Assembly (NCBI GenBank): GCA_965223905.1
Contig: CBDCXV010000009.1
Location: forward strand, 704,001 to 768,000
Direction: 5' to 3'
From: Candidatus Latescibacterota bacterium
GTDB taxonomy: Bacteria > Latescibacterota > UBA2968 > UBA8231
Length of the DNA: 64,000 bases
The notes beneath the pieces were generated by a model. The model had not been told where the DNA came from and did not search any database. It saw only the letters and a program-made list of their open reading frames with translations. Position numbers and translations under genes: made by a program. Below, piece after piece: positions 34,879 to 49,528 of this stretch (its first letter is position 1; each line of letters begins with the position of its first letter).

Positions 34879-36120
34879 TCAGGCCCGCAGCACGTCGGCG
34901 ACGGCGATGCGCGAGATCTGCCGTCCCGGAATCAGGCTGAGAAATACAGTGGCGGCGAAGACCAGCAGCCACATCGAGACGAGGAGCTCGACGGTGACGT
35001 CGGCGTGGACCATGGTGTCGAGGGCGAATCCCGAGACGTCGATGTCATCGCCGTAGAAGCGCGAGATGTCGAGGCCTTCGGCCTGCATCCAGTAGCCGAG
35101 GCCCCCGCCGAGCAGGATCCCGAGGCTGCTGCCGAGAGCGCCGAGCAGGGCGGACTCGATCACCACCTGCAGGCGCAGCAGGGAGGCCGACACCCCGAGG
35201 GCGAGCTGCATCGCCAGCTCGCGGGTGCGCTCCAGCACCGACATCAGGATGGTGTTGAAGATCGTGAACAGGCTGAGGAAGACGACGATCCCCTGGAAGA
35301 TCAGGTTGCTGCCGCGGTCGACGCGGACGTAGCTGGCGAGCTCGGGCATCACTTCTTCCCAGGTGCGCAGGGCAACCCCGCGGGGAACGAGCTCCCGCGC
35401 CGCGGCCATGACCGCAGGCCGCCGGCCGGGATCGGCGAGCAGGACGCCGACCTGGGTGGCGTCGTCGTCGCCGAGGCCGTAGAGCCGGCGCGCGAACTCC
35501 AGCGGGATCTGCACCAGGTAGGCGTCCACTTCGTCGGAGCCGACCTCGAAGGTCCCCTTGACCCTGAAGAGCTCCTCGACGATCTCGCCGGAAGCGTCGT
35601 TCGTGGCGATGACGAGCTTCCTGCCGGTCCGGACCTCGAGCCGCTTCGCCAGCCCGGAGCCGACGACGATCTTGCGCCCGTCCCCCTCTTCGAGGTAGGA
35701 CCCGGCGACCATCCTGCCGGCGATCGGGGACGCCCCTGCCTCGATTGACGGCTCCACCCCCATTACGGACACACCTACCGCGCCGCTGCCCGACTTGGCG
35801 ACCCCCTGGCCGAGGATGAGGGCCTTGGTGCCCAGGACGCCGTCGAGCCCCTCGAGCTGGTCGCGCAGGCCGGAGACGCCGCCGACGAAGAGATCGACCG
35901 CGGGGGCCTCGCGGTAGTGCGGGTGCTCGAGGGTGAAGTGACCGCCCTGCATGCGCGTGGCGTCGTCGATCAGCTGGTTGTAGACGCCGTCGGCGAAGGC
36001 GATGAAGAAGACCGCCAGGGCGAGGCCGAAGGCGATGGCGCTGAGCGTGATCCAGGTGCGCCGCCGGTTGCGCCAGATGCTGCGCCAGGAAATCCTGAAG
36101 ATCACTGCGAGCTTGTCCAT
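34879..36120 (-). CDS. ABC transporter permease (FtsX/LolE-like)
   Basis: WRNRRRTWIT; large periplasmic domain; NTILMSVLERTRE. Confidence 0.9.
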   Translation of the reverse strand: MDKLAVIFRISWRSIWRNRRRTWITLSAIAFGLALAVFFIAFADGVYNQLIDDATRMQGGHFTLEHPHYREAPAVDLFVGGVSGLRDQLEGLDGVLGTKALILGQGVAKSGSGAVGVSVMGVEPSIEAGASPIAGRMVAGSYLEEGDGRKIVVGSGLAKRLEVRTGRKLVIATNDASGEIVEELFRVKGTFEVGSDEVDAYLVQIPLEFARRLYGLGDDDATQVGVLLADPGRRPAVMAAARELVPRGVALRTWEEVMPELASYVRVDRGSNLIFQGIVVFLSLFTIFNTILMSVLERTRELAMQLALGVSASLLRLQVVIESALLGALGSSLGILLGGGLGYWMQAEGLDISRFYGDDIDVSGFALDTMVHADVTVELLVSMWLLVFAATVFLSLIPGRQISRIAVADVLRA

Positions 36121-36192
36121 GTCAGATGGTACTGATTACCCGTTGCCGCCGATACGTCGCTGAAGGTGCGTCGTTCCGTTGCGCCGCTGCCC

Positions 36193-37428
36193 TCACTGAT
36201 GGGTCATCGCCGCCACCGGGTCGAGGCGCGCCGCCTTGAGCGCGGGAAACAGCGCCGCCGCGACGCAGACCGCCGACATCGAGACGACCGCAGTCGCCAC
36301 CCTCCCCGGATGCAGGGAGAACTGGTAGACCGCGGCGATCGGCATCCCCGACATGGTCAGCGATTCCCCCTGCCAGCGCGTCAGGTCGAGGCCGCCCGAG
36401 GCCTCGAAATAGAGGCTGACCCCGCTGCCGAGAACCGCCCCGATCAAGGAGGCGAACCCCGACAGCACCAGCGCCTCGACGAGGACGTCGCCGACGATGC
36501 GATGCGGCCGGGTGCCGAGGGCCTTGAGCATGCCGAACTCACGCACCCGGTCGTGGGTGGCCATGAACATCGTGTTGAGAACCCCCAAACCGGCGGCCAG
36601 CAGGAAGATGACGGAGAAGATCCCCATCGAGGCGCCGGAGACATTGAGCATGTCGGACAAGGTGGGCAGCAGCTCGCGCCAGGTTTCGGCCACCAGGGCC
36701 TGCCCCTCCTCTTCCCGGCCGGCGTACAGGGCCGCCACCTCCTCGGCGGCGGCGCCGTTGCCGAGCAGGGCGACCTCGTGGACGCGTCCGTCGGCGACGA
36801 AAAGGCGGTCGAAGTCGTCCCTGTGCATGAGGATGCCGCCGCGGTCGATCTCCTCGCCGACGCTTTGCAGGATGCCGGCGACCTGGAAGAGATCGTTGCC
36901 GAGGGAGCCGTCCGCGGCCTGCACCACGGCGACGATCTCCGAGCCGACGTCCGCCTGCAGACTGCGGGCGAGCCGGCGCCCGATCACCACCTCGGACTGC
37001 GCCGGCGCCGACAGGAAGCGGCCCCGCTGGAGCTTGCCGGCCATCTCGAAGGTGCTGCTCTCCGCGGCCGGATCGATGCCCCAGTAGCTGGCGCCCGCGG
37101 ACTTGGCGCCGCACGAGACCAGGCCGAAGCCGAAGCTGCGGGCCGCGGCCCCGAAGCCGGCGGCGGCCGCCCTGTCGAGCAGGGCCTGCGGCTCGGAGAG
37201 GCTCTTGTATATCGAGCGGTCGGCGCGGTACCCCGGTGCGTGCAGCTGCACGTCGCCGACGTAGGTGTGCCGCGAGCTGTGCACCAGCTGCGCGATCATG
37301 CCGTCCATCATCGCGTAGGTGAAGATGAGCACGGCCGTGTTCAGGGCGACGGCGGCCACCGTCACCGCGGTCCGCCGCGGCTTGCGCATGATGTTGCGCC
37401 AGGCAATGGCCAGGGTTGCGTCAGGCAA
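36193..37428 (-). CDS. ABC transporter permease (FtsX/LolE-like)
   Basis: AWRNIMRKPRRT; NTMFMATHDRVREFGMLKALG; PALKAARLDPV. Confidence 0.9.
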   Translation of the reverse strand: MPDATLAIAWRNIMRKPRRTAVTVAAVALNTAVLIFTYAMMDGMIAQLVHSSRHTYVGDVQLHAPGYRADRSIYKSLSEPQALLDRAAAAGFGAAARSFGFGLVSCGAKSAGASYWGIDPAAESSTFEMAGKLQRGRFLSAPAQSEVVIGRRLARSLQADVGSEIVAVVQAADGSLGNDLFQVAGILQSVGEEIDRGGILMHRDDFDRLFVADGRVHEVALLGNGAAAEEVAALYAGREEEGQALVAETWRELLPTLSDMLNVSGASMGIFSVIFLLAAGLGVLNTMFMATHDRVREFGMLKALGTRPHRIVGDVLVEALVLSGFASLIGAVLGSGVSLYFEASGGLDLTRWQGESLTMSGMPIAAVYQFSLHPGRVATAVVSMSAVCVAAALFPALKAARLDPVAAMTHQ

Positions 37429-37602
37429 TTATTTCGGATTCTCCTCTCGGCAGAAATCCCCACAGCGTCCGGACCAAACCTGTCAGGCTTTGGGGAGCGA
37501 GAAAGCCACGGGATTTTACGTTGAATCCGGTGTCGATCAGTGGTTTTCCAAAAGGTTGAAAAACATCCGATGCTCCCATGGCCAGGGATCGCATTTATAC
37601 GC

Positions 37603-38340
37603 TTACTCGCGCAGGCTGCGCAGGGAGAAGAGGTCCTCGGCGAGGGGAAGGTCGAACTCGATCTCCTCGTAGCGGACCTCGGTGTGCTCGTCCGGCTCGT
37701 CCGCGGGGGCGATGCGCATGCGTAGCGGAATCAGCCGATCCCCTACCTCGCGGTAGTCGCCGAAGCTCATTGTCCGGGCCGGCTCCATGTCCTCGTCGAA
37801 GTACTCGACCGCCACCGGCATCCCGTCGGCGCTGCGCATCCGGACCACCACCTTGCCCCAGACCACCGCCGCATCCGGTTTGGGGATGCAGACCACGGCG
37901 ATCTCCCCGGAACCGGCCTCGCCGTACTCGAAGTTGTAATCGTCGGCCATGCGGCTCTCCTTGACGAGGTCGTCGTTGGTGAAGTGGCTGCCCATCCAGG
38001 AGCCGCCCATCATCGACGACGGGACCTTGATGACGCGGTTGACCTTGGGCAGGTAGTTCCACATCTGCCGGCCGGACTTCAGGGTGGTCGTCCCCTTCTC
38101 CTTGCGCGGCGACAGGATGCGGAACAGCGACTTCTCCCTGCCCTGGCTCCAGGCCTCGAGCTTCAGCTCCCGGGTCCAGTGTTCGGTGACCACCGTCATC
38201 GCCATGACCGCGCGCGAGGAGTCGCCGCGGTAGAGGTCGTCGAAGCGGTCGAGAACCTCCCGGGGGCTCAATTCGCCGGAAGCGCCGACGGCGACGGGAA
38301 GGGCGAGCAGGAGCAGCAGCGCTGCCGGGATGGTTTTCAT
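37603..38340 (-). CDS. Outer-membrane lipoprotein-sorting protein (LolA-like)
   Basis: Signal peptide; MWNYLPKVNRVIKVPSSMMGGSWMGSHFTNDDL family motif. Confidence 0.85.
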   Translation of the reverse strand: MKTIPAALLLLLALPVAVGASGELSPREVLDRFDDLYRGDSSRAVMAMTVVTEHWTRELKLEAWSQGREKSLFRILSPRKEKGTTTLKSGRQMWNYLPKVNRVIKVPSSMMGGSWMGSHFTNDDLVKESRMADDYNFEYGEAGSGEIAVVCIPKPDAAVVWGKVVVRMRSADGMPVAVEYFDEDMEPARTMSFGDYREVGDRLIPLRMRIAPADEPDEHTEVRYEEIEFDLPLAEDLFSLRSLRE

Positions 38341-38533
38341 GGCAGGTGGCCGGGTGTGGGAAGCCATTTCCGGATCTCAATATAGGAGGAGAGCAGGAGC
38401 GCAACCCGGCTTCGGGGCGGCATGCCCACAGCCACGTGTATCTTACCAGTTGCAGGCCGGGCCGGTAGCCAGGTGCGCCAGATGCTCCCCATCAACAAAG
38501 CGACAAAGCCGCAGCCCACGCTTGCAGACGAGG

Positions 38534-39433: not shown

Positions 39434-39820
39434 TTATCCGCCCATTTGCGCGATCCTTCGCGCCATCCAGGAGACATAGGCCGTACGGGTCATTTTGCGC
39501 CTCCGGGCCTCGGAGTCGATGAAGGAAGCCACCCCTTCGTCGAGGTTCAAATGGGCGCGCACGGTGCGGCCCGAGGGACGGATCAGGGGAATGGACACCA
39601 GCGCTTCTCCATCGAGGGGCTCGATGTCTTCGAGCGCGCTCGGGGCAGCCAGGGCCGCGCCGTCTTTTTCCGCTTCGATCGCACCATCCCGAAGCGCCTC
39701 TTCGGCATTCATCAGGGCCTCATCCATCGTCTTGCCCATGGCCGCGATGCCGGGAAGGTCCGGGAAGGTCACACCGTAGGCGCCTTTTTCGCCGTCGATC
39801 AGTGCAGGATATCGGATCAT
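39434..39820 (-). CDS. hicB: HicB-family antitoxin
   Basis: YGVTFPDLPG...GKTMDEALMNAEEAL plus C-terminal RHH-like segment. Confidence 0.9.
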   Translation of the reverse strand: MIRYPALIDGEKGAYGVTFPDLPGIAAMGKTMDEALMNAEEALRDGAIEAEKDGAALAAPSALEDIEPLDGEALVSIPLIRPSGRTVRAHLNLDEGVASFIDSEARRRKMTRTAYVSWMARRIAQMGG

Positions 39821-39844
39821 GGTCTCTCTTGTTTCCTTGGCCGC

Positions 39845-40036
39845 TTATTTGTCCACCCAACCGGCCTTCTTTGCAATGGAACGGGCCACTCCAGGCGACA
39901 GCTTGCTGTGTCTTGGCAAGGTGATTATGCCCTTGATGAGGGGATGCCGATAAATGTCATGTCCGCCACCGTGGCGCACCATATACCAACCTTCTTTCTC
40001 CAATTTCCTTTTGATCAGGCTGGTCCTGGTTTCCAT
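39845..40036 (-). CDS. hicA: HicA-family mRNA interferase toxin
   Basis: 63 aa basic protein, LEKEGW...GGHDIYRHP...LPRH...SIAKKAG; upstream of hicB. Confidence 0.9.
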   Translation of the reverse strand: METRTSLIKRKLEKEGWYMVRHGGGHDIYRHPLIKGIITLPRHSKLSPGVARSIAKKAGWVDK

Positions 40037-40123
40037 CTTCGTGGTCCGATATGCGTACATATATGCACATTTCGGGAGCCAATGCCAATGTTGTCCATAT
40101 AATCCACTTCAGGAGTTCGGGAG

Positions 40124-40180
40124 AATACCCTGCCGCCGCGGGACCAGCCCGTCCTCGAAGAGCGGGACGGCATTCGCTGA
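40124..40180 (+). pseudogene. 3' remnant of a VapB-type antitoxin
   Basis: ...LPPRDQPVLEERDGIR* resembles VapB C-termini and overlaps vapC by TGATG; frame closed upstream by TAA with no start codon. Confidence 0.6.
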
Positions 40181-40578
40181 TGTACATGCTGGATACCAAC
40201 ATCTGCATCTACGTCATCAACGAGCGCGACGAGGCCCTGCGCGAACGGTTCGAAGCACACGCGGCGGAGATCTGCATCTCCTCGATCACCTACGCGGAGC
40301 TTTGCTACGGGGTCGCCAATTCGGAACGCGTCGAGGAAAACAGGCGGATGCTGGAGGATTTTCGTCACGATCTGGCGATTCTTCCGTTCGGCGCCGATGC
40401 CGCGGCGCATTACGGCGAGATTCGCCAGGCGCTCAGGCAGCGCGGCAGGCCGATCGGTGCGAACGATCTCTTCATTGCGGCGCATGCCCGCAGTCTGGAC
40501 GCGGCTCTGGTTACGAACGATCCGGGGGAGTTCGGGCGCGTGCCGAAACTGCGGGTGGAGAACTGGTCCCGGTCGTAA
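40180..40578 (+). CDS. vapC: VapC PIN-domain toxin
   Basis: MYMLDTNICIY, SSITYAEL, IGANDLFIAAHA and LVTND..EF.RV..L.VENW. Confidence 0.92.
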   Translation: MYMLDTNICIYVINERDEALRERFEAHAAEICISSITYAELCYGVANSERVEENRRMLEDFRHDLAILPFGADAAAHYGEIRQALRQRGRPIGANDLFIAAHARSLDAALVTNDPGEFGRVPKLRVENWSRS

Positions 40579-40752
40579 CCCCCTGCCTCCGCCGAGGTGT
40601 GACTGGTCCGCGCGGACGGTCAGCACCGCCTGTCTTCACCGGGAATGATACCGCGCATGAACTGGTCGGACAGGGGCAACCGTGAAGGAGGTATCACCGT
40701 CCAGGGCCGCGACCGCAGGCGCTGGAGTGCCGGCATGCAGGAACCGCCCGGG

Positions 40753-40781
40753 TTGCGGAACGTCAGCGGTCCGGGTATGTT
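40753..40781 (+). promoter_or_regulatory. Putative sigma70 promoter of the cus operon
   Basis: TTGCGG-N17-TATGTT ending 19 nt before the ATG at 40801. Confidence 0.5.
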
Positions 40782-40800: not shown

Positions 40801-41181
40801 ATGAGAATCGCCCGAGCCATCGCGCTGGCAGCGCTCGTCGCCGCCCTGCCGGCTTCCAGCTTCGCCCTGGAGGGGTACTGCCTCCACTGCGCGCAGGTGG
40901 AGACCGTCCCAGGCTGCCACCCGCAGCAGGCCGACGACCGGCCGCAGCTTCGGGCCGACTGCTTCTGCTGCGCCGCCCTGGCCTGCGCCGAGGATTCGCA
41001 GCCTTCCTCCGAGCCGGGCCACAGCTATCTGCCCGCGGCCAAGGCCCCGGCCGTTGCGCTCGCCGCCAAGGCTCCGGAACGCGCTCCCCGGGCGGCAACG
41101 CCGCGCCCCTCCGGAATTCGCCCCCCGCTGCATCCCGCCACAGTTCCCCTCTACGTCCTCCACGACGTCTACTTGATCTGA
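40801..41181 (+). CDS. Cys-rich exported leader protein upstream of cusC (DUF2946/CutF/CruR-like architecture)
   Basis: Signal peptide; CLHC, CH and CFCC; Pro/Arg-rich tail RPP...LYVLHDVYLI. Confidence 0.7.
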   Translation: MRIARAIALAALVAALPASSFALEGYCLHCAQVETVPGCHPQQADDRPQLRADCFCCAALACAEDSQPSSEPGHSYLPAAKAPAVALAAKAPERAPRAATPRPSGIRPPLHPATVPLYVLHDVYLI

Positions 41182-41339
41182 TCCTCCTCCGCTCTCGTCG
41201 CGCCGCCGCGGCCGATGCAGAGCGCAACAAGTGAAGCGCAGGCCGGTCCTGCCCCGAAGGCCGGGCCGCGAGTCCTGCGCATTGCCGCGCGTACCGGTCT
41301 ACCCGGCGCGCGGGCCGTTCGCCTTTTTCAGGAGGAGGA
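41182..41339 (+). promoter_or_regulatory. Structured intergenic RNA whose anti-SD pairs with the cusC ribosome-binding site
   Basis: TCCTCCTCC (41182-41190) is the exact complement of GGAGGAGGA (41331-41339); three internal hairpins. Confidence 0.65.
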
Positions 41340-41341
41340 AG

Positions 41342-42601
41342 ATGCACCGAAGAATCATTGCCGCCGCGGCGCTGGCGCTGGCCGCGTCCGCAGGCGCCGA
41401 ACCACCCGAGCTCGACTTCGAGCGCCTGATCGAGGAGGCCCTGGCCGCGAATCCCGGGCTGAAGGCGCTCGAGCACCGGACAGCCGCGGCCGAGGCCAGG
41501 GTCCCGGCGGCCGGGGCGCTGCAGGACCCGTCGCTGCGGCTGGAGCTGAGCAACGTCCCTTTCAGTCCCCTCGACCTCGACGGCTCGCCGATGAGCGGCC
41601 GCCAGGTAACCCTGTCCCAGAAGCTCCCCTACCCGGGCAAACGCAAAGCCCGGGAACGCGCCGCCTCCCACGCCGCCGAGGCCGTTGCAGCCGCCCACCG
41701 GGAGCGCGAGCTGACCGTGGCCAACATGGTGAAGCAGGCCTATTACGAGCTCGCCTTCCTCGACCGGGCGATAGCCATCGCCGAGAGGAACCGGTCTCTG
41801 CTGAAGGATTTCGTCCGCATCGCGCAGAGCAAGTACTCGGTCGCCCGCGGCCCGCAGCAGGACGTGCTCAAGGCGCAGGTGTCGCTGTCGAGCCTGCGCG
41901 GCCGCCTGTTGATGCTGGAACGGCAACGGCGGCGGACTGGCGCCCGACTGAATGCGGTGCTGAACCGGCCCCCGGGCGAGCCAGTGGGCAGGACGCCCCC
42001 GATCGAGCCGACCCCTTTCGACATCGACGCGGGCCGGCTGCGGGAGATCGCCCAGGGGGAGCGGCCACTGCTGAACGGCCTGCGCGCTCGGCGAGACCGC
42101 TGGCGCGCCACCGAGGAGTTGGCGGTCCGGGAACGCCGCCCGGACTTCCAGGTCAGCGCCGCCTGGCGCCAGCGCGGCTTCAGGGAGGATCCGGTGGCGG
42201 GAAGCGACTTCTTCTCCGCCGGCGTAGTGCTGAACCTGCCGGTCTACCAGGGGCGCAGGCAGGACCGGGAGATCGCCGCGGCGCGGGCCGAGGTCAGGGC
42301 GGCCGAGGCGGAGCTCGAGGCGGAAAGCCGGGAGCTGGCGCTGCAGATCGAGCAGTTGCGGATCGACGCCGAGACCCACCTGCGGGAGATGGCGCTGTTC
42401 CGCGACGCGATCATCCCCCAGGCCGACCAGTCGCTGGCCGCGGCCATCGCCGGCTACCAGGTCGACGAGGTCGACTTCCTCACCCTGCTGGACAGCCAGG
42501 TAACCCTGCTGAATTTCGAGATCGACTACTACCGCCACCTGTCGCAATACGAGAAGACCCTGGCGCAGCTGGAGTCCGTCGTGGGCAGGAGGATCTTCTG
42601 A
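41342..42601 (+). CDS. cusC: Heavy-metal efflux outer-membrane factor (TolC/CusC/CzcC-like)
   Basis: Signal peptide; SQKLPYPGKR, QQDVLKAQV and YQVDEVDFLTLLDSQ; precedes cusB and cusA. Confidence 0.82.
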   Translation: MHRRIIAAAALALAASAGAEPPELDFERLIEEALAANPGLKALEHRTAAAEARVPAAGALQDPSLRLELSNVPFSPLDLDGSPMSGRQVTLSQKLPYPGKRKARERAASHAAEAVAAAHRERELTVANMVKQAYYELAFLDRAIAIAERNRSLLKDFVRIAQSKYSVARGPQQDVLKAQVSLSSLRGRLLMLERQRRRTGARLNAVLNRPPGEPVGRTPPIEPTPFDIDAGRLREIAQGERPLLNGLRARRDRWRATEELAVRERRPDFQVSAAWRQRGFREDPVAGSDFFSAGVVLNLPVYQGRRQDREIAAARAEVRAAEAELEAESRELALQIEQLRIDAETHLREMALFRDAIIPQADQSLAAAIAGYQVDEVDFLTLLDSQVTLLNFEIDYYRHLSQYEKTLAQLESVVGRRIF

Positions 42602-42780
42602 TGCTCGCCGGCAAACCATTTCTCGCGAAGGGGCCGGTGCAGTACGGACTCGCTGGGCTGCACTTCCCCGGCGGGTGCCCAACCACTCACCGGTTGCCCG
42701 CCATGCGAGCCGGGCGCCCCGGCGCCCTGGTCGGGCGCGAGTACCTGCTGCTGCGAGCACTGAGGGAGCGAAGATCATGA
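42601..42780 (+). CDS. Putative 59-aa small ORF bridging cusC and cusB
   Basis: ATG overlaps the cusC stop (TGATG) and its TGA overlaps the cusB start (ATGA); no recognisable family. Confidence 0.35.
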   Translation: MLAGKPFLAKGPVQYGLAGLHFPGGCPTTHRLPAMRAGRPGALVGREYLLLRALRERRS

Positions 42781-44156
42781 AGAACACCACGTGGAAATAC
42801 GGGATCGCCGTCGTCCTGTCGCTGGCCGCCGGGCTCGGTCTCGGCCTGTGGCTGGGGGGCGCATTCGAAATGCAGACGTACGCCCAACATGAGGAAGCCT
42901 CCGTGTACCGCTGTCCCATGCACCCGACCGTGGTCTCCGACGGTCCGGGCAGCTGCCCGGTCTGCGGCATGGACCTGGTGGCCGACGAGCCGGCCGGAGG
43001 CAGCGCATCCGGAGGCGAACGCGTCATCGCGTACTGGCGGGCGCCGATGGACCCGTCGTACACCTCCCCGGAGCCGGGAAAGTCGCCGATGGGAATGGAC
43101 TTGGTGCCGGTGTACGAGGACGAGCTCCAGGCCGAGGGCACGGTGACCATCGATCCGGCGACGGTGCAGAACATCGGGGTGAAGACCGCGGCGGTGGAGC
43201 GCCGGATTCTGCACCGCACCCTGCGCACCGTCGGCCGCGTCGACTACGACGAGACGCGCATGACCGACGTCAACACCAAGATCGCCGGCTGGGTGGAGAA
43301 GCTGTTCGTCGACTACACCGGGCAGATGGTCGGGAAGGGAGAGCCGCTGCTGCAGATCTACAGCCCGGAGCTGGTGGCGGCCCAGGAGGAGTTCCTGACC
43401 GCCGTCGACTACAGCGAGCGCCTGCGGGCCGGCGCGGAGGGCGACGCCCTTGCGGGCGCGCGCGACCTGCGGTCGGCGTCGCTGCAGCGGCTGCGCTACT
43501 GGGACATCAGCGACCGGCAGATCGAGGCGCTGCGGGAGACGGGGAAGGTGCGGCGCACCATGACCGTGCACTCCCCGCAGCAGGGGACCGTGGTTCACAA
43601 GGGGGTGTTCGACGGCCAGCACATCGCCCGGGGGCAGCACCTCTACCGCATCGCCGAGCTGTCGCGGGTCTGGGTGTACGCCGACATCTACGAGTACGAG
43701 CTGCCGTGGGTGCGGGAGGGGCAGGAGGCCGAGGTCGAGCTCTCCTACCTGCCCGGGAAGACCTTCACCGGCAAGGTCACCTACGTCTATCCGTTTCTCG
43801 AGGCGAAGACCCGCACCGTGAAGGTGCGCATGGCCTTCCCCAACCCCGGACTCGAGCTGAAGCCGGGGATGTACGCCAACGTCACCATCCGCTCGCCGCT
43901 GCCGGCCGAGAGCGTCGTCGCGGTTCCGGTGCAGGCGGTGATCCACTCCGGGCCGCGCTACGTCGCCGTCGTCAGCCTCGGGGAGGGCCGCTTCCAGCCG
44001 CGCGACATCCGCGTCGGGGCCGAGGCCGGCGGCTTCTACGAGGTGCTCGAGGGCCTCCGCGAAGGGGAGCGGATCGTCACCTCGGCGCAGTTCCTGATCG
44101 ACTCGGAGAGCAACCTGAAGGCCGCGGTCGGCTCCATGCGGGAGGGTTCGTCATGA
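42777..44156 (+). CDS. cusB: CusB-family heavy-metal efflux adaptor with N-terminal metal-binding domains
   Basis: YRCPMHP...CPVCGMDLV, YWRAPMDP...KSPMGMDLVP, LKPGMYA and QFLIDSES. Confidence 0.9.
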   Translation: MKNTTWKYGIAVVLSLAAGLGLGLWLGGAFEMQTYAQHEEASVYRCPMHPTVVSDGPGSCPVCGMDLVADEPAGGSASGGERVIAYWRAPMDPSYTSPEPGKSPMGMDLVPVYEDELQAEGTVTIDPATVQNIGVKTAAVERRILHRTLRTVGRVDYDETRMTDVNTKIAGWVEKLFVDYTGQMVGKGEPLLQIYSPELVAAQEEFLTAVDYSERLRAGAEGDALAGARDLRSASLQRLRYWDISDRQIEALRETGKVRRTMTVHSPQQGTVVHKGVFDGQHIARGQHLYRIAELSRVWVYADIYEYELPWVREGQEAEVELSYLPGKTFTGKVTYVYPFLEAKTRTVKVRMAFPNPGLELKPGMYANVTIRSPLPAESVVAVPVQAVIHSGPRYVAVVSLGEGRFQPRDIRVGAEAGGFYEVLEGLREGERIVTSAQFLIDSESNLKAAVGSMREGSS

Positions 44157-47100
44157 TAGGGCGCGTCATCGAAGCCTGCATCCGCAACAAGCTGTTGACC
44201 CTGCTGCTGACCCTGCTTGCGGCCGGCGCCGGGCTCTACGCCGTGGCCGACACCCCCCTCGACGCCATCCCCGACCTGTCGGACGTGCAGGTGATCATCT
44301 TCACCGAGTACCCGGGGCAGGCCCCCCAGGTGGTCGAGGACCAGGTGACCTTTCCGCTGAGCACGGCGATGCTGGCGGTGCCGTTCGCCAGGGCAGTGAG
44401 GGGGTACTCCTTCTTCGGGCTCTCCTTCGTCTACGTCATCTTCGAGGACGGCACCGACATGTACTGGGCGCGCAGCCGGGTGCTGGAATACCTCAATTAC
44501 GCCGGCGACCGGCTGCCGTCCGGGGTGCGGCCGCGGCTGGGTCCGGACGCGACCGGGGTCGGCTGGGTGTACGAGTACGCCCTCGTCGACACCAGCGGCC
44601 GCCGCGACCTCGCGGAGCTGCGCTCGATCCAGGACTGGTACCTGCGCTACGAGCTGACCAGCGTGCCCGGGGTCGCCGAGGTGGCGAGCATCGGCGGCTT
44701 CGTCAAGCAGTACCAGGTGACCGTCGACCCCAACAAGCTGGTGGCCTACGGGATTCCCCTGCAGCAGGTCGGGGCCGCGATCCGGCGCAGCAACAACGAT
44801 GTCGGCGGCCGCCTCATCGAGCTGGCGGAGACCGAGTTCATGGTGCGCGGGCTCGGGTACATCGAGTCGCTCGAGGACATCCGCAACGTGCCGGTGAGCG
44901 CCGGCCTCTCCGGGACCCCGGTGCGGGTGCGGGACGTCGCCACCGTGTCGGTCGGGCCGGAGCTGCGCCGCGGCCTGGCGGAGTGGAACGGCGAAGGGGA
45001 AGTCGCCGGGGGCATCGTGGTGATGCGCTACGGCGAGAACGCGCTGGAGGTGATCGACGCGGTCAAGGAGAAGCTCGCCGCGCTCGAGGCCGGGCTGCCG
45101 GAGGGGGTGGTGGTGGAGACCGCCTACGACCGCTCCGGCCTCATCCGCCGCGCCGTCGGCCACCTGCAAGAGAAGCTGATCGAGGAGTGCCTGGTGGTGG
45201 CCGCGGTATGCGCGCTCTTCCTCCTCCACTTCCGCAGCGCCTTCGCCGCGGTCTTCACCCTGCCCGTCGGCATCCTCGTCTCCTTCATCGTCATGTGGGG
45301 CCAGGGGATCAACGCCAACATCATGTCCCTCGGGGGGATCGCCATCGCCGTCGGCGCCATGGTCGACGCCGGCATCGTGCAGATCGAGAACGCCCACCGG
45401 CATCTCGAGCGCGACCGCGGCCGCAAGGGCCACTGGGAAATCATCGCCGACGCCTCCAAGGAGGTGGGGCCGGCCCTGTTCTACTCGCTGCTGATCGTCA
45501 CCCTGTCCTTCCTGCCGGTGTTCACATTGGAGCAGCAGGAAGGGCGGCTGTTCAAGCCGCTGGCCTACACCAAGACCTACGCCATGGCGGCCGCGGCCAT
45601 CCTGTCGATCACCGTGGTGCCGGTGCTGATCGGCTTCTGCCTGCGCGGCCGCATCGTGCGCGAAGAGCGCAACCCCCTCAACCGTTTCCTGGTCCGGGGG
45701 TACGTGCCGGTCCTCGGCTGGCTGCTGCGCCACAAGGCGGCCGTGCTGGCCGCCGCCGCGGCGGTGGTGTTCGTGTCGCTGTTTCCCTTCCGCAGCGCCG
45801 TCGCCGACCGTTTCGCCGACCGGCCCGGAAGCTTCGCGCACCAGGCGCTCCAGCGCCTGCAGCGGCTGTTTCCCCTCGAGATGATCGGATCGGAGTTCAT
45901 GCCGCCGCTGTACGAGGGGGACCTGCTCTACATGCCGACGACCCTCCCGGGGGTGTCGGTCTCCAAGGCGCGGGAGCTGCTGCAGCAGACCGACCGGATC
46001 ATCCGCAGCTTCCCCGAAGTGGAGAACGTTTTCGGCAAGGTCGGCCGCGCCGAGACCGCCACCGACCCGGCGCCGCTGTCGATGATCGAGACCACCATCA
46101 CCCTGCGGCCGCAGGAGGAGTGGCGGCCGGGCATGACCCCGGAGAAGCTGGTCGAGGAGCTCGACGCCGCGGTCCGCTTTCCCGGCCTCACCAACTCCTG
46201 GACCATGCCGATCAAGACGCGCATCGATATGCTCTCGACCGGCATCAAGACCCCCGTCGGCATCAAGGTCGCGGGGGACGATCTCCAAACGCTCGAGGAG
46301 GTCGGCCGGCGGATCGAGCAGGTGATGCGCGAGATCCCCGGCACCGCCAGCGTTTACGCCGAGCGGGTCGCCGGAGGCAACTACATCGACTTCGAGATCG
46401 ACCGCGAGGAGGCGGCCCGCTACGGGCTGACGGTCGGCGACGTGCAGGACGTGATCCTGTCGGCGATGGGGGGCGTCAACGTCACCTACACCGTCGAGGG
46501 GCGCGAGCGTTACCCGGTAAACCTCCGCTACGGGCGCGAGCTGCGCGACAACCTGCCGGCTCTCCAACGGGTGCTGGTGGCCACGCCGTCCGGGGCGCAG
46601 GTGCCGATGGCGCAGCTCGCCGACCTGCGCATCCGCAAGGGGCCGCCCGGCATCAAGAGCGAGAACGCGCGCCTCAACGCCTGGGTCTACGTCGACATCC
46701 GCGACGCCGACGTCGGTACCTATGTCGAGCGGGCGCGGCAGGTCGTCGGCGAGCAGGTCGACCTGCCGCCGGGAACCAGCCTGGTCTGGAGCGGCCAGTA
46801 CGAATACATGGAGAGGGCGCAGCGGCGGCTGAGCATCGTCGTTCCGGTAACCCTTGCCATCATCTTCCTGCTCCTGTATCTCAACTTCCGCAGCGTCACC
46901 GAGAGCCTGATCGTCATGTTCACCCTGCCTTTCGCCCTGGTCGGGGGGATCTGGTTCATCTACCTGCTCGGCTACAACATGAGCGTCGCCGTCGGCGTCG
47001 GGTTCATCGCCCTCGCCGGGGTGAGCGCCGAGCTCGGAGTGGTCATGCTGACCTACCTCGACCAGGCGCTGGAGAGCCGCCGCAGGGACGGCCGGCTCGA

Positions 47101-47401
47101 CAGCTCCGGCGATCTCGTTGCCGCGGTTATTGAGGGCGCATCGAGAAGGGTGCGGCCGATCTTCATGACCGTCGGCTCGACGGTCGGCGGCCTGCTGCCG
47201 ATCATGTGGGCCTCGGGAACCGGGTCCCAGGTGATGAAGCGGATAGCGGCCCCGATGGTCGGGGGGCTGGCGACCGCCACCCTGCTCGTACTGCTGGTGC
47301 TGCCGGCCGTTTACGCTCTGTGGCGCGGCCTTGAGTTGCGCGCCGGCACGAAACCGACAACTGATACACACACCCACAAGGAAGGAGTCAGTGCATCATG
47401 A
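44153..47401 (+). CDS. cusA: CusA/SilA Cu(I)/Ag(I) RND permease
   Basis: LDAIPDLSDVQVII, GPDATGVGWVYEY, EFMPPLYEGDLLYMP, WTMPIKTRIDMLSTG (Met triad) and MKRIAAPMVGG. Confidence 0.95.
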   Translation: MIGRVIEACIRNKLLTLLLTLLAAGAGLYAVADTPLDAIPDLSDVQVIIFTEYPGQAPQVVEDQVTFPLSTAMLAVPFARAVRGYSFFGLSFVYVIFEDGTDMYWARSRVLEYLNYAGDRLPSGVRPRLGPDATGVGWVYEYALVDTSGRRDLAELRSIQDWYLRYELTSVPGVAEVASIGGFVKQYQVTVDPNKLVAYGIPLQQVGAAIRRSNNDVGGRLIELAETEFMVRGLGYIESLEDIRNVPVSAGLSGTPVRVRDVATVSVGPELRRGLAEWNGEGEVAGGIVVMRYGENALEVIDAVKEKLAALEAGLPEGVVVETAYDRSGLIRRAVGHLQEKLIEECLVVAAVCALFLLHFRSAFAAVFTLPVGILVSFIVMWGQGINANIMSLGGIAIAVGAMVDAGIVQIENAHRHLERDRGRKGHWEIIADASKEVGPALFYSLLIVTLSFLPVFTLEQQEGRLFKPLAYTKTYAMAAAAILSITVVPVLIGFCLRGRIVREERNPLNRFLVRGYVPVLGWLLRHKAAVLAAAAAVVFVSLFPFRSAVADRFADRPGSFAHQALQRLQRLFPLEMIGSEFMPPLYEGDLLYMPTTLPGVSVSKARELLQQTDRIIRSFPEVENVFGKVGRAETATDPAPLSMIETTITLRPQEEWRPGMTPEKLVEELDAAVRFPGLTNSWTMPIKTRIDMLSTGIKTPVGIKVAGDDLQTLEEVGRRIEQVMREIPGTASVYAERVAGGNYIDFEIDREEAARYGLTVGDVQDVILSAMGGVNVTYTVEGRERYPVNLRYGRELRDNLPALQRVLVATPSGAQVPMAQLADLRIRKGPPGIKSENARLNAWVYVDIRDADVGTYVERARQVVGEQVDLPPGTSLVWSGQYEYMERAQRRLSIVVPVTLAIIFLLLYLNFRSVTESLIVMFTLPFALVGGIWFIYLLGYNMSVAVGVGFIALAGVSAELGVVMLTYLDQALESRRRDGRLDSSGDLVAAVIEGASRRVRPIFMTVGSTVGGLLPIMWASGTGSQVMKRIAAPMVGGLATATLLVLLVLPAVYALWRGLELRAGTKPTTDTHTHKEGVSAS

Positions 47402-47834
47402 AACGCTTCGATTCGCCGCCATCCTCGCCCTCGCCCTGCCGGTCGCAGCGGCCGGCAGCCCATCCGGGGCGACCGAGGAGACCGCCGTCGATACGGCTTC
47501 CATGCAGGGAGAGATCGTCGACATCGCCTGCTACTTCCGCCACGACTCCAGCGGGCCGGAGCACACCAAGTGCGCCGTCTACTGCGCCAACCTCGGGATG
47601 CCCCTGGCCTTCCTCGAGGAGGAGACGGGCAACCTCTTCGTCGTGCTGCCCTCCGGGCACGCGGACCCGAAGGAAGTTGTGCTGCCGCACCTCGGCCAGG
47701 CTGTGAGCGTCGAGGGGATCCTGTGGTCCTCGGGAGGCCTGACCGGGATCGAGATCATGGAGATTCAACCTGCCGGGGAGGCCGGTGCCGACCCGGCGGA
47801 AGGGGAGATGGAGGGAGGGCACAGTGAACACTAA
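47391..47834 (+). CDS. Exported Cys/His putative metal-binding protein
   Basis: GTG after GAAGGAG; signal peptide; GEIVDIACY...HTKCAVYC...GMPL; His-containing acidic tail. Confidence 0.72.
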   Translation: MHHETLRFAAILALALPVAAAGSPSGATEETAVDTASMQGEIVDIACYFRHDSSGPEHTKCAVYCANLGMPLAFLEEETGNLFVVLPSGHADPKEVVLPHLGQAVSVEGILWSSGGLTGIEIMEIQPAGEAGADPAEGEMEGGHSEH

Positions 47835-48159
47835 AGGGAAAGCCACCCTCGCCGTCGCAGCTGCGGCGGTTCTTCTGGCCGGAGGCGGCTACCTGTTGCA
47901 TGACCAAAGCCAGCCTCCGGAGTTGCCGCCTGACGGACTCGCCCTCTACCGGACCCTGCTGGAGGAGATCCCCGAGGTGGTCAGCGAGGTGCCGTGCGCC
48001 TGTTGCAAACAGACCCTGGCCTGGTGCTACGAGGGAGGCTGTCCCCCTACCTGACGCCAGTGCAACGAAGAAGGCCGTGACGCCTTCGAATGGCACCATG
48101 AAGGAAGGGGGATCGAGGAGATCAAGGAGCTGATCCTGGCGAAGTACTTCGACCAGTAG
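47824..48159 (+). CDS. Candidate selenoprotein, PCYCGC-like membrane-anchored Cys-rich protein with UxxC (UGA at 48052-48054)
   Basis: N-terminal TM; PCACC...LAWCY; frame continues past TGA as RQCNEEGRDAFEWHHEGRGIEEIKELILAKYFDQ* with host-like codon use; SECIS-like hairpin downstream. Confidence 0.78.
48052..48090 (+). promoter_or_regulatory. Putative bacterial SECIS element
   Basis: Stem GAAGGC/GCCTTC (48070-48087) with loop CGTGAC (GU at loop positions 2-3), 21 nt after the UGA. Confidence 0.65.
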
Positions 48160-48264
48160 TGGCCAGTCGTTATCATACCATGGTTGTCGGCTGGTTGGCG
48201 CTGTCGGCACCGGAGGCAGCCGATCACGGAGCGAGCGGCGAAGACCATTGATAGCAAAGAACGG

Positions 48265-49528
48265 ATGAATTCCATACAGGCGGGGGAAGATACCGAGCTC
48301 GAACTGAAGGAGATCGTGTTCCGGGGAGATAGGATTTCCTTTGCCAGGGAGGAAGGACGGGCTGCGTCCAAACTCGCAGAAGTATTCGTCAGCATGGCCA
48401 ACACGAAGGGGGGCGAGGTTGTGATGGGCGTGCCCAACAGCGATCGCATTCCAGTCGGAATCGACCACGAGATGCGCGATCTCCTGGAGCAATTCGTAGT
48501 CAACGTGGCGCTGAACAACTGCAAGCCTATGATCGTACCGGCGTTGAACTGGGAATACCTTCCCGGAGAAGACAGCGTGCCAAAGCTGTGTCTGATTGTT
48601 GAAATCCCCATGTCCAGATTCGATGTACACCAGACGAGCGACGGCCGCTTTCTTCAACGATTGGGAAGTCACCGGCAATCCATCCCTCCGGAACGACTGG
48701 CAGGCCTGCTGAGTGCTCGTCGCCTGACCAGCCCTGTAGAAGAAAGACCGGTTTTGGGCAGCAATCTGGATGATCTGAGCGAGGTTCGCTTGAACCAATA
48801 TTTCCTCGATCGCTTCCCGGACTGGTCCAGGCCCGAGGACTGGGGCTCCACCCTCGTCGACCACAAACTCGCCGTCGAGCTGGACTCGGGTGTGACGCCG
48901 ACGCACCTCGGAGTCTTGCTCTTTGCCGAACTACCAGAGCGGCATTTGAACGGCGCCTGCATCGATCTGGCCGCATATGCCCACGAGGAGCCCGACGGCA
49001 ATACCGTGGACAGCAAGCGGATCGTCGGCCCCGTGCCCGATCAGATCGCCCAGGCGCTGTCGTACATCCGGCTTTCACCCCTGGTTCCGACGCTCTCCAG
49101 GAAGGACGGAGAGGGCCGCATGGACTATCCGAGGTACGTGGAAACGGCTCTACAGGAAGCGGTCGTCAACGCCGTCGTGCACCGGGATTACGAGATCGCG
49201 GGTTCGCAGATCATCATCCGCCTGTTTCCCGACCGGATCGAGTTCCAGAATCCCGGTGCCCTCTACAACACCCTGACCATCGAGAACCTGTACGCGGGCT
49301 GTCAGCCTGTCCGCCGAAATCAGCTTCTGGCGGGATTCATGCGCGATTACAAGAGCGCGCTTACCGGCCGCAGCTATATGGAAGCGAGAGGCGAGGGGAT
49401 TCCTGAACCTGGTCAGGGACAGCCTGCGTCTGTCCGGGCGCCTCCCCAAGCTCGAACAGATCGGGGACGCGACCAAGCTGACGATCTACGCTGCGCGTCA
49501 TGAGGAGTTGGTGAATGATACGGATTGA
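48265..49528 (+). CDS. Schlafen/AlbA_2 + HATPase_c_4 (RecG C-terminal-like) protein; +1 frameshift at the G4 run 49395-49398
   Basis: GEDTELELKE, SMANTKGGEVVMGV, ALQEAVVNAVVHRDY, IEFQNPG and RRNQLLA; removing one G gives EARGEGFLNLVRDSLRLSGRLP...TKLTIYAA to TGA at 49528. Confidence 0.8.

Follow-up and report, generated by a model that had tools for sequence, protein, structure and literature searches.

The window considered here, meaning the whole 64,000-nucleotide (nt) stretch of DNA that was analyzed (positions 704,001 to 768,000 of contig CBDCXV010000009.1, assembly GCA_965223905.1), belongs to a Candidatus Latescibacterota genome and contains, on the plus strand, a 126-codon open reading frame (ORF) that is probably the first gene of a leader-cusCBA operon. 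This leader (40801 to 41181, with its ATG at 40801 and its TGA at 41179-41181) encodes an exported-looking, Cys-rich peptide that is SilD/CusD-like (CutF-like class) and is followed, after a spacer of 160 nt, by the gene for a cusC-type outer-membrane factor (41342 to 42601, plus strand; Pfam OEP, E 4e-46). cusC's Shine-Dalgarno (SD) sequence can pair with the bases at the leader stop codon, and the fold and conservation of this pairing make it quite likely that ribosomes translating the leader to its end unmask the cusC SD. The pump would then probably be made only when the leader has been translated to its end, a type of switch that is already known. The favored explanation as a whole, which combines a leader-cusCBA operon and stop-to-SD unmasking with a ribosome dwell that is tuned by metal, is given a probability of about 0.6.

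Pairing of the leader stop region with the cusC SD

The cusC SD, GGAGGAGGA, lies at 41331-41339, three bases before the cusC ATG (41342), and its exact 9-nt complement, TCCTCCTCC (41182-41190), starts at the first base past the leader stop. A perfect anti-SD in this place had been claimed in an earlier note on this DNA, made from the sequence alone, and both its coordinates and its complementarity are confirmed. The two arms enclose 140 nt of the spacer. When both strands of the window are counted, the 9-mer is found three times, two of these being the helix arms, and shuffled sequence gives a mean of 1.36. RNAfold assigns to 41170-41350 a minimum free energy (MFE) of -92.5 kcal/mol, compared with a mean of -76.9 for shuffled sequences (z -3.83; 0 of 200 shuffles as stable). 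The closing helix of this fold consists of 9 bp (41182-41190 with 41331-41339) and is extended by AUCU (41176-41179) paired with AGAU (41340-41343) and by UG (41174-41175) paired with CA (41345-41346). Therefore, the final leader codon, some of the bases of the stop codon and the AUG of cusC all belong to the helix. Taken as a whole, the 5' arm (41174 to 41190, plus strand) combines the final sense codon with part of the stop and with the anti-SD, and the 3' arm (41331 to 41346, plus strand) combines the SD, AGAU and the start codon (41342-41344). The pairing between stop and SD is real and lies far beyond chance.

Between the arms, the structured spacer (41191 to 41323, plus strand) forms hairpins at 41191-41223, 41231-41285 and 41286-41312, then a weak one at 41313-41323 that is followed by CUUUUUC. 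The three spacer hairpins that the earlier note had described are thus found in the MFE structure. However, its four-way junction does not hold up as a functional unit: the weak fourth hairpin makes the MFE junction five-way, and the inner hairpins are not conserved, hairpin 1 being missing in one relative and different in another. A search of Rfam 15 with the spacer (41182-41341) gives no match at E <= 1; the sole hit elsewhere is a chance miRNA inside cusC.

Conservation of the pairing was examined in DNA from 20 loci, 8 of them from two genera of one family, 2 from more distant members of that family and 10 from metagenomes, which were sorted by protein similarity into 7 lineages (a grouping that is the analysts' own). 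In each locus the ribosome binding site (RBS, -18 to +3 of the downstream start) was compared with every 21-nt segment of leader and spacer, giving 295-498 segments per locus, about 5% of which count as near the stop. The best partner of the RBS overlaps the leader stop in 17 of the 20 loci and in 6 of the 7 lineages, and every 5' arm falls within -18 to +15 nt of the leader stop. The paired sequences themselves differ by lineage, the 5' arm lying in the last six codons for some and past the stop for others. All 8 loci of the two genera retain the 9-bp helix; in the sister genus (5 loci) it is formed by TCCTTCTCC and GGAGAAGGA, a central C-G pair having been replaced, with compensation, by U-A. 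In a 7x7 matrix across lineages, the best partner for each of the 7 RBSs is its own stop region, and only 1 of the 5040 permutations of lineage assignment, the true one, attains the observed mean energy. At the level of sequence, then, a conserved and co-varying anti-SD/SD pairing is supported across lineages, and the check by folding and covariation that the earlier note had proposed comes out in favor of a conserved anti-SD.

When a stop codon occupies its A site, a ribosome covers about 12-15 nt downstream of the P site. Since the 5' arms lie at -18 to +15 nt of the stop, they would be placed inside a terminating ribosome. In the computed fold, the probability that the SD is unpaired, P(unpaired), rises from 0.012 in the intact RNA to 0.30 once the RNA 5' of 41188 is removed, and the SD is then left with no more than a weak hairpin formed locally with the U-tract. 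When a ribosome is placed at the Arg-Pro-Pro (RPP) codons, the SD is still paired, with P(unpaired) at 0.012. The earlier note had taken RPP to be the arrest site; this motif comprises residues 107-109, 17-19 codons before the end, and it cannot work in that role: a ribosome there, 54 nt upstream of the stop, leaves the SD paired. Moreover, the position of RPP is not conserved across the 43-member family described below, the true conserved tail being VPLYVLHDVYLI. The broader claim of the same note, that a ribosome at the leader end frees the cusC SD, is well supported by the fold, the conserved pairing and the effect of removing the 5' arm.

The leader gene and its protein family

Judged by comparison with its relatives, the leader is a genuine conserved gene under protein-level selection. 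It has 23 homologues (identity 41-99%), of which 22 start at MRI when aligned. Searched with a profile, 1.84 billion representative proteins yield 43 leader clusters at 50% identity, nearly all of them 120-135 amino acids (aa) long and matching end to end; the extra length of five longer representatives (154-214 aa) probably consists of N-terminal extensions from upstream start calls. Pfam and NCBIfam give only scattered chance matches to the 43 family members at E <= 1. Pfam DUF2946 (PF11162) is matched by 0 of the 43 at E <= 1 and by nothing in the window's genome at E <= 0.01; an ESM Atlas cluster in which 23% of the members carry DUF2946 scores 0.93, which is a lead only. Among 168 genomes of the phylum that were searched, the leader family is present only in one family-level group, in 10 genomes. 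A scan of the genome collection with alignment A1 returned only four loci that were known before (L011-L014), which played no further part in the analysis, a metagenome scan with alignment A2 gave 68 pattern matches, of which 0 were confirmed, and a scan of the window's whole genome for the tail motif found no second leader, its 3 hits being the leader and two unrelated longer frames.

The codons of a putative signal peptide (40801 to 40866, plus strand; MRIARAIALAALVAALPASSFA) are recognized by sequence, as MRIAR, a hydrophobic Ala/Leu core and ASSFA-L. This is the best-conserved part of the leader between genera, at about 20 of 22 residues, and residues 1-19 are almost invariant, with some synonymous changes, between two genera whose leaders share about 52% identity overall. 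Signal peptides are not usually conserved to this degree, and a need to target the nascent chain could be the reason. An AlphaFold model of the leader contains a confident helix only at the signal peptide (residues 2-20); its mean predicted local distance difference test (pLDDT) score is 62.8 and its predicted template modeling (pTM) score 0.27, and the mature part (pLDDT 50-66) has no confident fold.

The Cys/His cluster of the leader (40879 to 40986, plus strand) comprises C27xxC30, C39H40, C54xC56C57 and C62. In the 43-member alignment, C39 and C56 are invariant and C30, C54 and C57 are conserved in at least 90%; with CxxC, CH and CxCC conserved across the family, these residues are candidate metal ligands. 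The earlier description of the leader as an exported-looking, Cys-rich peptide with CxxC/CH/CxCC is thus borne out as real and conserved, in a gene that heads a Cu/Ag-type pump operon. The cluster is followed by a Pro/Ala-rich peptide spacer (40987 to 41145, plus strand), which contains R107-P108-P109 (41119-41127) and is little conserved in sequence with a fixed length. Counted from the CCC motif, 40 of the 41 members that have it reach their C-terminus after 64-71 aa, and in the lone exception the regex matched an earlier motif.

The leader ends in the conserved motif P-L-Y-V-L-H-D-V-Y-L-I followed by TGA (41146 to 41181, plus strand), for which the family consensus is [P]-P-L-[FY]-x-L-x-x-[S]-x-L-I-stop; LI are the final residues in 42 of the 43 members. 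The tail residues are conserved while synonymous codons replace one another (CTC/CTT/CTG/CTA/TTG for Leu, ATC/ATT for Ile), so selection acts on the peptide. A PP is present within the last 15 residues (at -12/-11) of 22 of the 43 family representatives and is not present there in the window's leader, whose PP (residues 108-109) lies 18-19 residues from the end. A requirement for a stop codon specific to release factor 2 was considered and dropped: the stop is TGA in 20 of 20 loci, but that of SilD is TAG. At position 41173, a contig from an RNA library has C for T (TTG to CTG, synonymous for Leu), as have all related genomes, which hints that the sponge samples from which the RNA came contained a closely related strain.

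Transcription of the leader and cusC

A promoter-like block of 44 nt (40738 to 40781, plus strand) is near-invariant in 7 loci of the two genera, in surrounding DNA that is not alignable. With the consensus sequences that we take to apply, the block could be read either as a site for an extracytoplasmic function (ECF)-like sigma factor (GGAAC at 40740-40744, N16, CGTC at 40761-40764) or as a weak σ70-like site (TTGCGG at 40753-40758, N17, TATGTT at 40776-40781); a consensus scanner reports no σ70 site at 40738-40781. No sigma factor gene is found in the window with Sigma70_r2, nor does the window have a match to MerR_1 or to OmpR-type Trans_reg_C, and the CsoR family has no match in the window's genome, which is 93.6% complete. 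In this respect the statement of the earlier note that no CusRS, CueR or CsoR gene lies nearby stands. The promoter-like block weakens the argument that, with no regulator close by, control would act at the RNA level only.

Four sponge metatranscriptome runs provide short contigs that cover 40822-41510 only; nothing can be concluded from the missing coverage before 40822 and past 41510. One of these RNA contigs spans the leader stop (41034-41265), and another spans the spacer into cusC (41254-41404). They fit co-transcription of leader and cusC and speak against a fully efficient terminator; carry-over of DNA is possible, and the contigs carry neither strand nor end information.

Proposed mechanism and its alternatives

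According to the proposed mechanism, the helix that the leader end and the anti-SD form with the cusC SD and start codon would shut off cusC initiation in free mRNA. A terminating ribosome, with the leader stop in its A site, would hold the 5' arm in the mRNA channel and release the cusC RBS, which the helix would until then have kept near that ribosome. Initiation at cusC would consequently depend on a ribosome translating the leader all the way to its end. How long the ribosome dwells at the stop codon would be set by the nascent chain: the signal peptide would bring it co-translationally to SecYEG, the fixed spacer of 64-71 residues would position the Cys/His cluster on the periplasmic side at the moment when the ribosome arrives at the stop, and the last 11 residues, P-L-[FY]-x-L-x-x-x-x-L-I, would occupy the exit tunnel. 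About 65 residues span the exit tunnel and the translocon, a length to which that of the leader spacer is close. Cu(I) or Ag(I) on the cluster would then lengthen or shorten the dwell and so tune the synthesis of CusCBA, as in the precedent of CutF, a peptide of Rhodobacter capsulatus. We infer a metal-tuned dwell from the conservation of the signal peptide, together with the Cys cluster, the constant length of the spacer, the tail and the CutF precedent; that metal tunes cusC through the nascent chain is given slightly less than even odds.

Several observations weigh against this explanation. Its support consists of structure and comparison, and a response of leader and cusC to metal is hypothetical. 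The window's leader has no PP in its last 15 residues, unlike CutF, which arrests at PPP, and to our knowledge no arrest peptide with a P-L-[FY]-x-L-...-L-I tail has been described. In an equilibrium fold of 600 nt of leader and spacer in which the footprint of the terminating ribosome is masked, P(unpaired) of the SD reaches only 0.14, as the SD takes other partners in the leader coding region; this caveat is softened in that the coding region would carry ribosomes in the cell. In locus L009 the stop-region segment is outranked by 37 of 467 segments (the MFE structure still pairs the arms, with a z of only -1.23), and the stop-region segments of L017 and L021 are not of first rank either. The downstream start codons and the lineage groupings are the analysts' choice. 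The match of the family to SilD, discussed below, is limited to 25 residues with an hhalign probability of 41%. Finally, the conserved promoter-like block, as a feature of the sequence, makes an added transcriptional layer likely.

Control by the nascent chain might be absent altogether. In a rather unlikely alternative, the coupling is plain and unregulated: the leader is a periplasmic metal-binding chaperone or sponge that replaces CusF or SilE, the helix ties CusC to the amount of leader, and the tail and Cys cluster serve the mature protein. The fold and the conserved stop-SD pairing would serve this explanation equally well, the Cys/His cluster is conserved as it would require, no CusF-like gene is recognized in the operon, and regulation could be carried by the promoter-like block. 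However, a peptide spacer whose length is kept and whose sequence is not fits a nascent-chain ruler better than a folded protein, and the low pLDDT and pTM values of the mature part speak against a confident fold, although a metal-dependent one would escape such a prediction. The most conserved residues are the last eleven, at the stop codon, which are common to SilD despite its different N-terminal part, and the signal peptide is conserved to an unusual degree. In addition, CutF is described as acting only in cis and as being degraded after export (PMC9973294).

Regulation of transcription like that by CruR of Bordetella pertussis, in which translation of or arrest on the leader decides termination in the spacer (by Rho or by a hairpin with a U-tract) and hence mRNA length, is improbable. 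The spacer is G+C-rich and tightly folded, and such RNA is a poor loading site for Rho. A terminator-like hairpin followed by CTTTTTC does lie at 41310-41329, but this U-tract occurs only in the 3 loci of the window's genus, being absent from the 5 sister-genus loci and from other lineages, the RNA contig at 41254-41404 runs through the hairpin into cusC, and the conserved feature is pairing with the SD itself. CruR is reported to use control of this kind with a spacer of 162 nt (PMC9426467, PMC9973294). Moreover, the transcript values listed for Cupriavidus metallidurans are 291 for cusD compared with 1.7 for cusC and 129 for silD compared with 4.0 for silC (PMC11647585), which would fit attenuation or decay past the leader gene in those operons. 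It is highly improbable that the RNA acts by itself, without leader translation, as a riboswitch, thermometer, RNase III processing site or mRNA stabilizer. The fold is stable and multi-branched, as such an element would be, and removal of the CutF stem-loop region is reported to have altered mRNA stability as well (PMC9973294). Nevertheless, the spacer contains no Rfam family at E <= 1, its inner hairpins are unconserved to the point that one relative lacks hairpin 1, and the 5' arm follows the leader stop codon in 6 of the 7 lineages, for which an RNA-only element offers no reason.

The pump genes and their surroundings

Downstream of cusC lies the gene for a cusB-type adaptor with heavy-metal-binding domains (42675 to 44156, start codon unsettled, plus strand; Pfam HlyD_D23 and HMBD), whose top NCBIfam match is CusB PRK09783, at a score under that model's cut-off. 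The cusA-type permease, of the heavy-metal efflux resistance-nodulation-division (HME-RND) type, is encoded by an in-frame stretch from 44153 to 47401 (exact start unsettled, plus strand); it matches TIGR00914 at 1233 bits, over the cut-off, and scores 1277 bits against E. coli CusA compared with 528 bits against CzcA-like ZneA. With these matches, cusCBA is a reasonable name for the operon. In related loci, 7 of the 8 downstream ORFs tested match Pfam OEP, and the 8th is cut off at 103 aa. The ORFs 3' of cusA have no Pfam or NCBIfam match.

On its upstream side, the leader promoter region is adjoined by a PIN-domain (VapC-like) gene (40051-40578). Neither of two overlapping ORFs upstream (39446-40102 and 39954-40685) matches a known family; one could encode the antitoxin partner of the PIN gene. 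Farther upstream are genes for a MacB/FtsX-type permease and a LolA-like protein (34879-38367), which are unconnected to the leader. An ORF 3' of the pump operon (48184-49503) encodes Schlafen AlbA_2 and HATPase_c_4 domains and is overlapped on the opposite strand by an ORF of 383 aa (47755-48906) that has no family match.

Comparison with known systems

The earlier note had chosen CutF and CruR as the class for comparison, and rightly so. Opening of the SD-shielding stem-loop before cutO is reported to need translation of CutF as well as the signal peptide, the CxxxC motif and the C-terminus of the protein (PMC9973294, Ozturk et al. 2023). The leader resembles CutF, for which action in cis is described, as a small, exported-looking ORF with a Cys motif and with an SD-shielding structure before the next gene; this structure also lies within reach of a ribosome at the leader end, a feature of the CutF mechanism that is present at leader and cusC. 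The same paper describes 5,334 CutF-like proteins defined by rule, with OEP/CusC-type genes as the commonest downstream neighbor, in a network that includes SilD, CusD, CopL, CruR and CzcI (PMC9973294). As is usual for this class, whose members are described upstream of OEP (CusC/CzcC/SilC) genes, the leader precedes an OEP gene, at a distance of 160 nt, and then the pump. Against the length of <150 aa in the CutF-like rule, the leader has 126 aa, and 38 of the 43 family representatives comply. The same rule includes an N-terminal Sec signal peptide, for which the leader offers a conserved signal-peptide-like N-terminus, and a PP among the last 15 residues, which 22 of the 43 representatives have and the window's leader lacks. 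The differences from CutF begin at the C-terminus: arrest of CutF is reported at PPP, residues 114-116 of 118, and to depend on elongation factor P (preprint 10.1101/2025.02.05.636593), which places it two residues from the end, whereas the last 11 residues of the leader carry a single Pro. Furthermore, the leader family has no DUF2946 match, the gene downstream of the leader encodes an efflux-pump component rather than a multicopper oxidase, and the helix between leader and cusC is long-range.

CruR is described as combining arrest at RAPP with Rho-dependent termination (PMC9426467, Roy et al. 2022). Like the leader, it is an upstream ORF with a Cys motif that heads a copper-related operon and is followed by a long spacer (162 nt for CruR, 160 nt for the leader). 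In contrast, copper relieves the CruR arrest, which leads to Rho-dependent termination and represses an import gene, and the account given of CruR is of a system that does not depend on a signal sequence. The RAPP motif of CruR is not present in the window's leader.

In SecM-secA, MifM-yidC2 and VemP-secDF2, a nascent exported chain sets the dwell of the ribosome, which, when stalled, opens a structure that masks the SD of the next gene. In termination-stage arrest of the TnaC type, a stop codon occupies the A site of the halted ribosome. These systems sense secretion or a small molecule in the tunnel rather than a periplasmic metal; they have no sequence similarity to the leader, and arrest on the leader is a proposal.

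The nearest counterparts of the leader are SilD and CusD (of silDCBA and cusDCBAF), each the product of a small first gene directly 5' of a Cu/Ag HME-RND outer-membrane factor. SilD of C. metallidurans plasmid pMOL30 (L027:4940-5419, minus strand; ending PLAILHCCFRI-TAG, ...PRPLAILHCCFRI-stop, ...RPPPRPLAILHCCFRI-stop) has an N-terminal hydrophobic segment and a Cys/His cluster, and its C-terminus, P-L-x-x-L-H-C-x-x-x-I-stop, aligns with the tail of the leader family, a likeness that was seen in the sequence of SilD. In hhalign, leader 102-126 and SilD 107-131 are the only parts that align (E 2.8e-4). Base pairs join the SilD stop codon and the bases that follow it to the SD and the start codon of silC, and the spacer of 72 nt forms a hairpin (z -3.18). 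SilD differs from the leader in its N-terminal metal motifs (HxH..LCQAHCH as opposed to CxxC/CH/CCC), in its spacer of 72 nt with one hairpin as opposed to 160 nt with 3-4 hairpins, and in its TAG stop as opposed to TGA. It has no DUF2946 match. Plasmid relatives of SilD come from Ralstonia and Cupriavidus, apart from single records in Sphaerotilus and in Polaromonas. In the papers that a literature search brought up, SilD and CusD were found only as operon members or as rows of expression tables, with no tested function, and no published definition was found for the tail P-L-x-x-L-H-x-x-x-x-I-stop, so the motif is defined by the present analysis.

Two plasmid loci were considered and set aside as not belonging to the leader family. 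The closest plasmid-borne relative of CusC, on a Pelobacter plasmid, is accompanied by a σ54 two-component system and has no annotated leader. On a plasmid of Methylomonas sp., a small His/Cys ORF with a PP tail (L026:1973-2311) encodes 112 aa, is His/Cys-rich, ends in ...PPDIKPPIITL and has no Pfam match; it lies 147 nt upstream of a TolC/CusB/CusA-type operon and looks like another CutF-like leader.

Since SilD shares both the tail and a stop-to-SD hairpin with it, the leader family is a SilD/CusD-like branch of the published CutF-like class, a placement that was made against the rules of the class. New in the leader family are the lack of a family-model match, a tail without terminal polyproline, a long-range helix that closes a variable spacer with multiple hairpins, and the phylum. 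More tentatively, and with the odds against it, the tail P-L-[FY]-x-L-[HYN]-x-x-x-L-I-stop could be an undescribed, non-polyproline arrest module of the termination stage, common to the leader family and Burkholderiales SilD despite their differing sensor halves, and working together with the spacer of 64-71 residues as a ruler that places the Cys cluster at the SecYEG exit. If so, periplasmic Cu/Ag would be read directly as the dwell of a ribosome on a stop codon that overlies the anti-SD.

CutF is the one protein for which a nascent exported peptide has been shown to sense periplasmic copper at the level of translation; for a much larger set of small ORFs before RND metal pumps, such sensing has been proposed only from bioinformatics. 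The leader and its relatives give this proposal a concrete anatomy, in which an anti-SD lies on the leader stop, the arms co-vary, the distance from the Cys motif to the C-terminus is fixed and a non-polyproline tail is common to SilD. Thus, they provide a function-level hypothesis both for an unannotated family in the uncultivated phylum Latescibacterota and for SilD/CusD of a model metal-resistant bacterium.

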